A stretch of DNA of 60,000 nt from Schmidtea polychroa (taxonomy: Eukaryota): contig CM097885.1 in the NCBI GenBank assembly GCA_044892525.1, positions 20,586,001-20,646,000 on the forward strand, read 5' to 3'. Shown here piece after piece: positions 55,288 to 57,200 of the stretch; position 1 is the stretch's first letter; each line of letters begins with the position of its first letter. The position numbers and the translations under genes are program-made. The notes under the pieces were generated by a model. It was given only the letters and a program-made list of their open reading frames with translations. It was not told the DNA's origin and searched no databases.

Positions 55288-57200
55288 ATGAATGCCATAA
55301 TAACCACGATATTGATATGGATGATGTGTATCAAAGGAACGGAGTCATTTGCAGTATACGACTGCGACAACATAAAAATCCATGAGAAATATTCATTAAA
55401 GGATACGGAAGACTGTAAAGCGGCAAACCCAAGAAAATTACAAACAGTCATGGCATCAGTCTCGTATAACGTATATCAAGAAGCAGATTTCATCAAACCA
55501 TGGTCCAAGAATGTACGGTAACCAGAAAGATATTTGCACATCACTGCGGTTCATCCTCCCACTCAACAATCATAGAACCGGGATTAGAATCGACAGTAAT
55601 ATTACTATCAAGAGAGGAATGCGAGGAAGGATTCCGATCAGGGAGAATACACTTAAGGCAAGGGATTGAAATTGCTGCAGAACAAGGAAAAATAAAAACG
55701 ACTCGCGTGTATACGGCAGGCAGAATCACTAAAGGAGATGGAACATGTGAGACAGGAACATACACCTTGAACGGACAACTGGTTAGTGGAGTGGTCGTAA
55801 TAGAAAGCTACGAAGCTAAATTAGAAAGGTATCAAGGTTATTTCGACCCTGACACGCAAGCAATGAAGAAATACCCAAGTTGTCTCGCATCAGATCGATC
55901 ATGTTCAACCGGAATGTCAACTCTGGTATACCATGCGGATCAGAAAGTATGTCGACTAATGTTACTCAAAACAGCAATATTCGAAGAAATCCAAGGGAAA
56001 GTATACAGTGAACCAAAGGGAGAAGCAGAAAAACGAGCGATGGAAGAGTTGAGAGCAAGGAAAGGATTCAGAGAAGACGTAATAACATCGAAATTGGAAT
56101 CGGAAGTAACACCCACAGCGATAATCTCCAAAGACGATGGAATAGGAATGAGGTTCATAAAGAACAAAATGGTGAGTAAATGCGATGAGATGGTGATCAG
56201 CACCAATTATAAAGGGATCTACTTGTCGCGGAGAACCCTAGCAAATGCAGTCGGAAGACTAAGCGAAAAGGATGTCAAACTATATTTATACGCCAATAAT
56301 AAGATGGATTTCTTATACCACAGAGGATTAACATCCATGGAAAAAGTCTACCATGACCTGTTAAGGAACGATTGCCTGCTCAACAAAGAAATACTGAGAA
56401 CAAAATTAGCAATGGCGATTACAAATCCAGATAACGCAATTCCGTTACTACCATTACAGGAAGGATATTTCGGACGAATCGTGGGCGAAGTGATGTACAC
56501 CTACCAATGTAAAAAGATAATGGCGAGATTGCCGGAAAACCCTACGATACCAAGGGATAAGTGTGCAAACGAACTCGAAATTATTCACGAAGGTAAACCC
56601 AGGTTTGTGCAAGCAGTCACTAGGGTAATGAACCCGGTAGGGTTTCAACCGAATCTGTTTAATTGTAGTAATGCATATGGACCAATGTATGAAAAAGAAG
56701 ATGGACAATGGGTTCAATTCCCAAGTAAAACAATCGTAGTAACACCCAAGAAATTTGGATTGACGGAACTAACAACAGAACTAGAGTTCAAGCCGATAGA
56801 TGTATCCCAGAGTGGATTATATACACCAAAAGATCTCGAATCAGCAAGAGCCCACCTGTTATTCCCAGCGCAAAGACAAGCAATCTTATCAAATATAGTG
56901 ACTATTTCTGGAGGAAATAATTATGGGGAGAGTCCGAACTACGAGCTATTATTATCGCCAAGTCACTATCAACAAGCAACAGCAAACATGATGAAGGCTA
57001 TGTGGGGTCGATTTTTAGTATTTGGCCAAATGATGGCAGGGATACTCGGAATTATTCTGATAATACAAATAGTCAGAGTGATACTAACTCAGATGCTAGC
57101 ATGTTTTGACATCTATAAACGCGAGAGAAAAGTAAATTGGAAACTTGCAATTGGATTCTTACCGTTCTTAGCGAAAACAATGGTGTTGCATGGACACTCA
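55288..57200 (+). CDS. Envelope-like glycoprotein resembling chuvirus (Jingchuvirales) G; frameshift near 55498
   Basis: Signal peptide then FAVYDC..YSL..EDC, ECTV..HHCGSSSHS, ECEE, GTC.TG, YANNKMDFLY, GEVMYTYQC, membrane anchor WGRFLVFGQMMAGILGIILII. Confidence 0.8.

Follow-up and report, generated by a model that had tools for sequence, protein, structure and literature searches.

An env gene lying in frame between BCL2 and the protease (PR) was described in 2019 for Burro1 (GYPSM1) of Schmidtea mediterranea; it was matched to mononegavirus glycoproteins, and a provirus hypothesis was put forward (Arkhipova and Yushenova, 2019, PMC6431247). GAG-ENV-POL elements with a gB-type env have since been reported from flatworms, nematodes and bryozoans, with six listed for S. 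mediterranea and an ancient acquisition of env inferred (Chary and Hayashi, 2026, PMC13524379). Passages of the latter paper state that transmission is unknown outside Drosophila, that herpesvirus gB depends on partner glycoproteins, and that how gB-type errantiviruses enter cells has yet to be explained. The presence of env inside Burro, between gag and pol, is therefore already known from the in-frame env of the first paper and the catalogue of the second, which includes a match, Smed_errantivirus_6, to the element treated here. The initial annotation of this locus, which placed an env between gag and protease of a giant Gypsy element, agrees with the Pfam domain order and with the published accounts of Burro, while its suggestion that env might not have been annotated in Burro elements is overtaken by those accounts, in print since 2019 (PMC6431247) and catalogued in 2026 (PMC13524379). 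The main result thus confirms published work, to which it adds an apparent sister family with many intact, selected copies.

The stretch of DNA analysed (the window) comprises 60,000 nucleotides of Schmidtea polychroa, and the host of its env segment is a Burro1-like Ty3/Gypsy element of ~36.6 kb that continues beyond the window. The features are as follows, in window coordinates unless stated otherwise.

40355..45944, + strand: 5' LTR, 5.6 kb, TG...CA (LTR alignment)
46653..47135, + strand: leader ORF with RING finger (PF13920, E 3.9e-11)
49632..50864, + strand: gag capsid and first zinc knuckles (PF03732, E 2e-6; PF00098), frameshifted near the end of gag in the window copy
50783..53995, + strand: polyprotein piece with third CCHC knuckle, weak ubiquitin-like match and MATH (PF22486, E 8e-29; PF21403, E 0.009)
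about 53165-53614, + strand: MATH domain, within the preceding polyprotein piece
54955..55170, + strand: weak BCL2-like helical region with a BH2-like GGW motif at its end (BLASTP E 5e-7 to P0010)
55288..55347, + strand: internal env signal peptide, frame 1 (hydropathy, small residues at -3/-1)
55348..57029, + strand: predicted ectodomain of a class III (gB-like) fusogen, about 555 aa with 14 Cys; the window copy has a frameshift near 55,500
57030..57086, + strand: env transmembrane (TM) anchor (hydropathy)
57138-57188, + strand: conserved amphipathic segment after the env TM
57708..58000, + strand: aspartic protease, same frame as the env ectodomain (PF00077, E 3e-5)
58422..59999, + strand: reverse transcriptase (RT) and RNase H (RH), same frame as the protease, with stops at 58419-58421 and 59466-59468 in the window copy
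L021:1969-3909 (G000:C1:20647969-20649909), beyond the window: predicted type I membrane protein, the second of the polyprotein, at its C-terminus after integrase and ankyrin
L021:4538-6001 and 6142-7320: TRAF-like ORF (zinc fingers and MATH) and BIR-RING IAP-like ORF (Pfam)
G000:C1:20657312-20662910, beyond the window: 3' LTR (LTR alignment)

The traits of a Ty3/Gypsy element are present (paired LTRs, TG...CA, a target duplication, and gag followed by PR-RT-RH-IN), as are those of Burro1-like elements (more than 30 kb, multi-kb LTRs, a single ~4,800-aa polyprotein, and MATH, ankyrin and BIR accessory domains identified with Pfam) and of gB-type GAG-ENV-POL elements (a class III ectodomain that precedes pol and is flanked by signal and TM). 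The LTR pair of the window copy is 99.68% identical across 5,599 aligned bp, which together with the TG...CA ends and an ATAT target-site duplication indicates a recent 36.6-kb insertion. The BCL2-like region has no Pfam match; its BLASTP match to P0010 (E 5e-7) spans 33 residues, and P0010 is itself only a weak Bcl-2 match. Beyond the window, RNase H is followed by integrase (IN), ankyrin repeats, the second membrane protein (in L021) and then the 3' ORFs, in which coiled-coil ORFs without a Pfam match come after the TRAF-like and BIR-RING ones. A primer-binding-site-like sequence at 45952-45970, 7 bases inside the 5' LTR end, resembles the complement of the tRNA-Pro 3' end. Within the GC-richer end of the LTR, at 44450-45609, are ORFs of 127 and 169 aa with no Pfam match over the cut-off, and a stretch related to this region occurs at L022:9596-9971. 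An LTR fragment, 79% identical, lies just upstream of the element at 38747-39918.

The likeness to Burro1 covers the giant Gypsy format of more than 30 kb with one polyprotein (4,873 aa in Burro1, about 4,791 here) and the series gag, three CCHC knuckles, MATH, BCL2-like region, env before PR, RT-RH-IN and ankyrin, with BIR present (PMC6431247); the BIR-RING IAP-like ORF agrees with the B-IAP reported for Burro1 (PMC13465017). The S. polychroa element apparently belongs to a sister family in another planarian genome, set apart from Burro1 by its description and not by its sequence. Its likeness to published elements by itself points to a Schmidtea-like planarian host. Env is borne by five families of this genome, the Burro1-like family 1 and four more. 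Family 1 shares gene order, gB-type env and multicopy state with Smed_errantivirus_6, whose env domains I-II are identical to those here at about 173 of 260 residues (~67%, counted by eye), families 2 and 3 resemble Smed_2 and Smed_1, and the S. polychroa family is absent from the nine flatworm rows of that paper (PMC13524379). In the section on Burro1 in PMC6431247, env is tied to gypsy Env and F-type proteins, whereas the model here is class III and gB-like, and that section mentions no second membrane protein after integrase. Unlike an infectious errantivirus in the Drosophila sense, the present element does not carry env as a separate ORF after pol. Nematode non-canonical endogenous retroviruses, reportedly described by Sacco et al. 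in 2022 with gag-env-pol order and a glycoprotein related to RNA viruses, differ in host.

All of the env motifs named in the initial annotation are found in the window, distributed over two frames. Frame 1 holds the signal peptide (55288-55347) and AVYDC (55351-55365); HCGSSSH (55542-55562), NNKMDF (56295-56312), GEVMY..QC (56484-56510) and the TM (57030-57086) lie in frame 3, as do the protease DTG motif (57759-57776) and RT YIDD (58980-58991) downstream. Signal and TM were assigned by hydropathy. A frameshift near 55,500 puts the signal and the first ~50 ectodomain residues of the window copy out of frame with the remainder, and the env-PR frame is ended by the stop at 58419-58421, ahead of RT. 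With a further stop (59466-59468) and frameshifts in gag and past MATH, the window copy is a dead, recently inserted one. The proposal that env is in frame with protease and RT, which mentioned neither the frameshift nor the first stop, is right for most of the ectodomain and the protease in this copy but not for the signal peptide or past the stop before RT, and holds for the family: signal and AVYDC share a frame with the ectodomain in all 19 other copies fetched, and in 17 of the 19 this frame reaches the protease.

Conservation across intact copies, which had been proposed as a check, is borne out, env being shared by the whole family. The genome contains at least 77 matches at 99-100% identity, and among the 77 listed, 34 fall in open frames of at least 4,700 aa, mostly 4,791 (manual count). 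A private nested insertion is ruled out by these near-identical copies and by the junction being in frame in 19 of 19. As judged from pN/pS, env is under purifying selection, with values of 0.11 when copies were chosen by another region (5 intact out of 10) and 0.04 for 25 copies picked by env similarity, a choice that biases the latter low; the counts used only copies cut out without stops (5/10 for env, 7/10 for the C-terminal unit), in pairs that are few and not independent. Contigs of four runs, whose RNA nature is a guess, covered env in fragments, and none of the joints displayed for these runs led into env (11 more were undisplayed).

In Pfam searches the env-PR ORF of the window was assigned to PF24664, the fusion glycoprotein of Monjiviricetes, with E 7.5e-63, far above chance, and E 1.8e-66 was also obtained for the env segment. 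The AlphaFold model of a natural copy as a monomer, made with 124 aligned sequences (pLDDT 90.8, pTM 0.71), comprises beta-rich domains and a central helix of 48 residues. Foldseek searches of the PDB listed herpesvirus gB in every row (best E 5e-15, TM 0.35-0.43), and those of predicted viral structures had glycoproteins of chuvirus or chu-related type at the top, among them Tacheng tick virus 4 G (E 7e-38, TM 0.62) and one chu-related G with TM 0.70. At the sequence level, the env profile found no more than weak gB matches in the PDB (E 0.057). By its modelled fold the env segment appears to be a genuine class III (herpes gB-like) fusogen, in keeping with the Mono-/Jingchuvirales-type fusion protein first proposed. 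The ectodomain has 14 Cys and one N-glycosylation sequon, and no furin motif was found in it. A putative fusion-loop turn after Cys67 is polar in the Burro1-like family and carries W, Y, M or L in 11 of 13 other matched relatives, the pattern being unmatched in 4 of 18 proteins. The polar candidate loop, the single sequon and the lack of a furin motif would weigh against a working fusogen.

The part of this polyprotein that may be new is a second membrane protein at its C-terminus. This unit, at about G000:C1:20648400-20649900, comprises a signal-like segment and a Cys-containing ectodomain of ~370 aa whose stalk is rich in Thr, followed by a TM that is basic on its cytosolic side and by a short tail; it lies a whole number of codons from env in the same 4,791-aa frame. 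Hydropathy of the family 1 pieces yields exactly four strong hydrophobic peaks, in the order signal 1, TM1, signal 2 and TM2, with none in the gag-MATH or PR-IN pieces, a pattern that favours the early prediction of a polyprotein threading the ER membrane. The post-integrase signal-like segment occurs in all eight elements extending that far (families 1-5, P0007, P0009 and P0020), which are kin and not independent cases, that of family 3 being read from homology below the hydropathy threshold; a clear TM follows the ectodomain in seven of the eight and is ambiguous in P0020. The family 5 copy is frameshifted in this unit, one of the two family 4 copies is without the TM (a rearrangement), and both families were examined after the prediction of the unit had been made. 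Nearly all matches of an integrase search belonged to family 1, and the one other family fetched is also env-bearing, leaving no env-less element for comparison.

The C-terminal unit is, by sequence comparison, under purifying selection yet fast-diverging: pN/pS is 0.18 (7 of 10 copies) or 0.29 (11 copies), and families 2 and 3 are 36% identical in this unit, while their env sequences reach 71% and their RT and IN 85-86%. Profile search found no sequence homology between the family 1 unit and those of families 2-5, and the family 1 protein had no homologue among 3,316 near-length candidates, no Pfam match over the cut-off, no viral fold match at E <=0.001, and a single Atlas match (0.77). The family 2-5 profile matched P0007 in the TM only and gave nothing meaningful against the PDB. 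For the family 2 ectodomain, the Atlas gives a likeness to fibronectin type III domains (0.91, at low recognition), which is a lead. The single-sequence model of family 1 is poor overall (pLDDT 48.5), though a single beta domain in it is confident and fits Ig-like sandwiches, a common arrangement, at Z about 8; by these matches the ectodomain appears Ig/FnIII-like. No published mention of the post-integrase membrane protein was found in the literature searched, although figures, subscription papers, Repbase notes, further supplements of PMC13524379 and the Burro1 B-IAP study could carry one; passages of that paper contain no discussion of polyprotein topology or of such a protein. In families 3-5, a downstream ORF looks DEDDh RNA exonuclease-like by eye (L068:1-1224 on the minus strand, L140:1-5346 and L143:2079-4349), and that of L140 forms an in-frame fusion with the post-integrase ectodomain.

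We consider that the segment is probably an ancestral gB-type env, carried in a polyprotein of ~4,790 aa and serving envelope-mediated spread between cells. On this model, Gag-MATH-BCL2 would be made in the cytosol, after which signal 1 would open the ER translocon and signal peptidase would free the Env N-terminus into the lumen. TM1 would halt transfer, so that PR-RT-RH-IN-ANK would remain cytosolic and tethered to the Env tail, and export of the second, Ig-like ectodomain would follow from signal 2, with TM2 as its anchor. Trimers of Env could concentrate the protease at the membrane, particles would bud with Env, and the fusogen would let them enter neighbouring cells within one animal, e.g., neoblasts or germ cells. 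The gB-like fusogen could rely on the second protein for receptor binding. Since signal peptidase would separate Gag from Env-Pol, Pol would be expected to reach particles via the Env tail, in amounts equal to those of Gag and Env. A 1:1 output of Gag, Env and Pol is unusual for retroviruses, and this feature counts against envelope-mediated spread, as do the polar loop and gB TM-scores of only 0.35-0.43. The literature search found no report of enveloped Burro particles entering other cells.

A more tentative extension, which we regard as possible though somewhat short of even, is that one four-pass polyprotein may supply a two-protein envelope, composed of a conserved gB-like fusogen ahead of the protease and, past integrase, a fast-evolving, exchangeable Ig/FnIII attachment protein, by analogy with herpes gB and gD or paramyxovirus F and H, and that Pol may enter particles through being tethered to Env and not to Gag. 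If true, this would be an assembly and entry design undescribed for retroelements in the literature searched. The predicted topology would imply Env-tethered packaging of Pol, and the conserved second membrane protein would be a concrete candidate for the partner that a gB-type fusogen needs (PMC13524379). Because planarians allow RNAi and Burro1 RNA is reported as abundant in them (PMC8532177), both ideas could be tested on native material.

Env might instead be kept for an intracellular task, such as budding into or assembly on ER membranes, tethering of Pol, or cell-cell fusion, in which case the element would not travel between cells and would be a retrotransposon in practice. Purifying selection cannot distinguish entry from assembly, the polar putative loop, one sequon and missing furin site suit such a task, and the physical tie of Pol to Env means that Env must keep its frame whatever it does. 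We nevertheless judge this account unlikely, since elements with only 30-45% likeness still retain the whole fold and the conserved Cys, more than a mere tether would call for, and the second ectodomain is kept too. It is less plausible still, and indeed improbable, that env is made mainly from a spliced or internally initiated RNA at Met 55288, as in retroviruses, with its in-frame fusion incidental. This Met does stand directly before the hydrophobic core and would give a canonical 20-aa signal peptide, but no Met occupies that place in family 2, P0007 or P0008, pyrimidines make up only 33% of the 60 bases upstream, and 19 of 19 copies, like all long relatives, preserve the junction frame.

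The preferred reading, envelope-mediated spread by an ancestral env, also specifies an origin, on which database searches and trees bear. A search of 1.84 billion representatives with env gave 934 matches, the nearest of which (30-45% identity) lie inside retroelement polyproteins with PR, RT and IN downstream, while standalone glycoproteins are at 22-30%, including that of the chuvirus Tacheng tick virus 4 at 29%. A FastTree of 121 rows, each filled in 400 or more of 583 columns, united polyprotein envs and fragments in one group of 22 rows (support 0.987), and an IQ-TREE of 37 hand-picked rows placed 17 of 17 polyprotein envs on the same side of one branch (SH-aLRT 99); the trees are unrooted, and most standalone rows are unnamed, one being named as a chuvirus. 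Two DUF5641-linked standalone rows, presumably of BEL/Pao type, are also on the opposite side. Forcing env together with the chuvirus G pair was rejected (p-AU 2.8e-14). The RT and env trees of nine elements have their two best-supported groups in common and differ in the placement of P0007, P0009 and P0016. By these comparisons, env belongs with other polyprotein-embedded envs in a deep group that is separate from chuvirus G, and an old, shared acquisition agrees with the trees whereas a recent Burro-specific capture does not. PF24664 and a class III fold are shared with Chuviridae G and with Anakin elements of BEL/Pao (Dezordi, 2023, PMC10084718), which are standalone ORFs at 22-30% identity on the opposite side of the tree, whereas the host element here is Gypsy. 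Although chuviruses are the best named viral relatives of env by sequence and fold, a recent, independent capture of chuvirus G by the Burro lineage, as the initial annotation had it, or a private nested insertion is very improbable in view of the higher identity to polyprotein envs, their grouping on one side of a branch, the AU result, the groups common to RT and env, and the occurrence of env in five families of the genome.

Some minor observations concern the relatives of this env and the surroundings of the element. P0007 (HBK71150.1) is a gag-env-pol retroelement polyprotein whose database entry assigns it to a Flavobacteriaceae MAG; it probably represents eukaryotic contamination. Two or more aspartic-protease-like domains follow env in P0006, P0008, P0009, P0011, P0012 and P0019, and P0009 has another protease-like motif past integrase. 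Elsewhere in the window, an inverted repeat pair of 1.46 kb with 98% identity and internal tandem repeats occupies 16982-18416 and 30873-32330.
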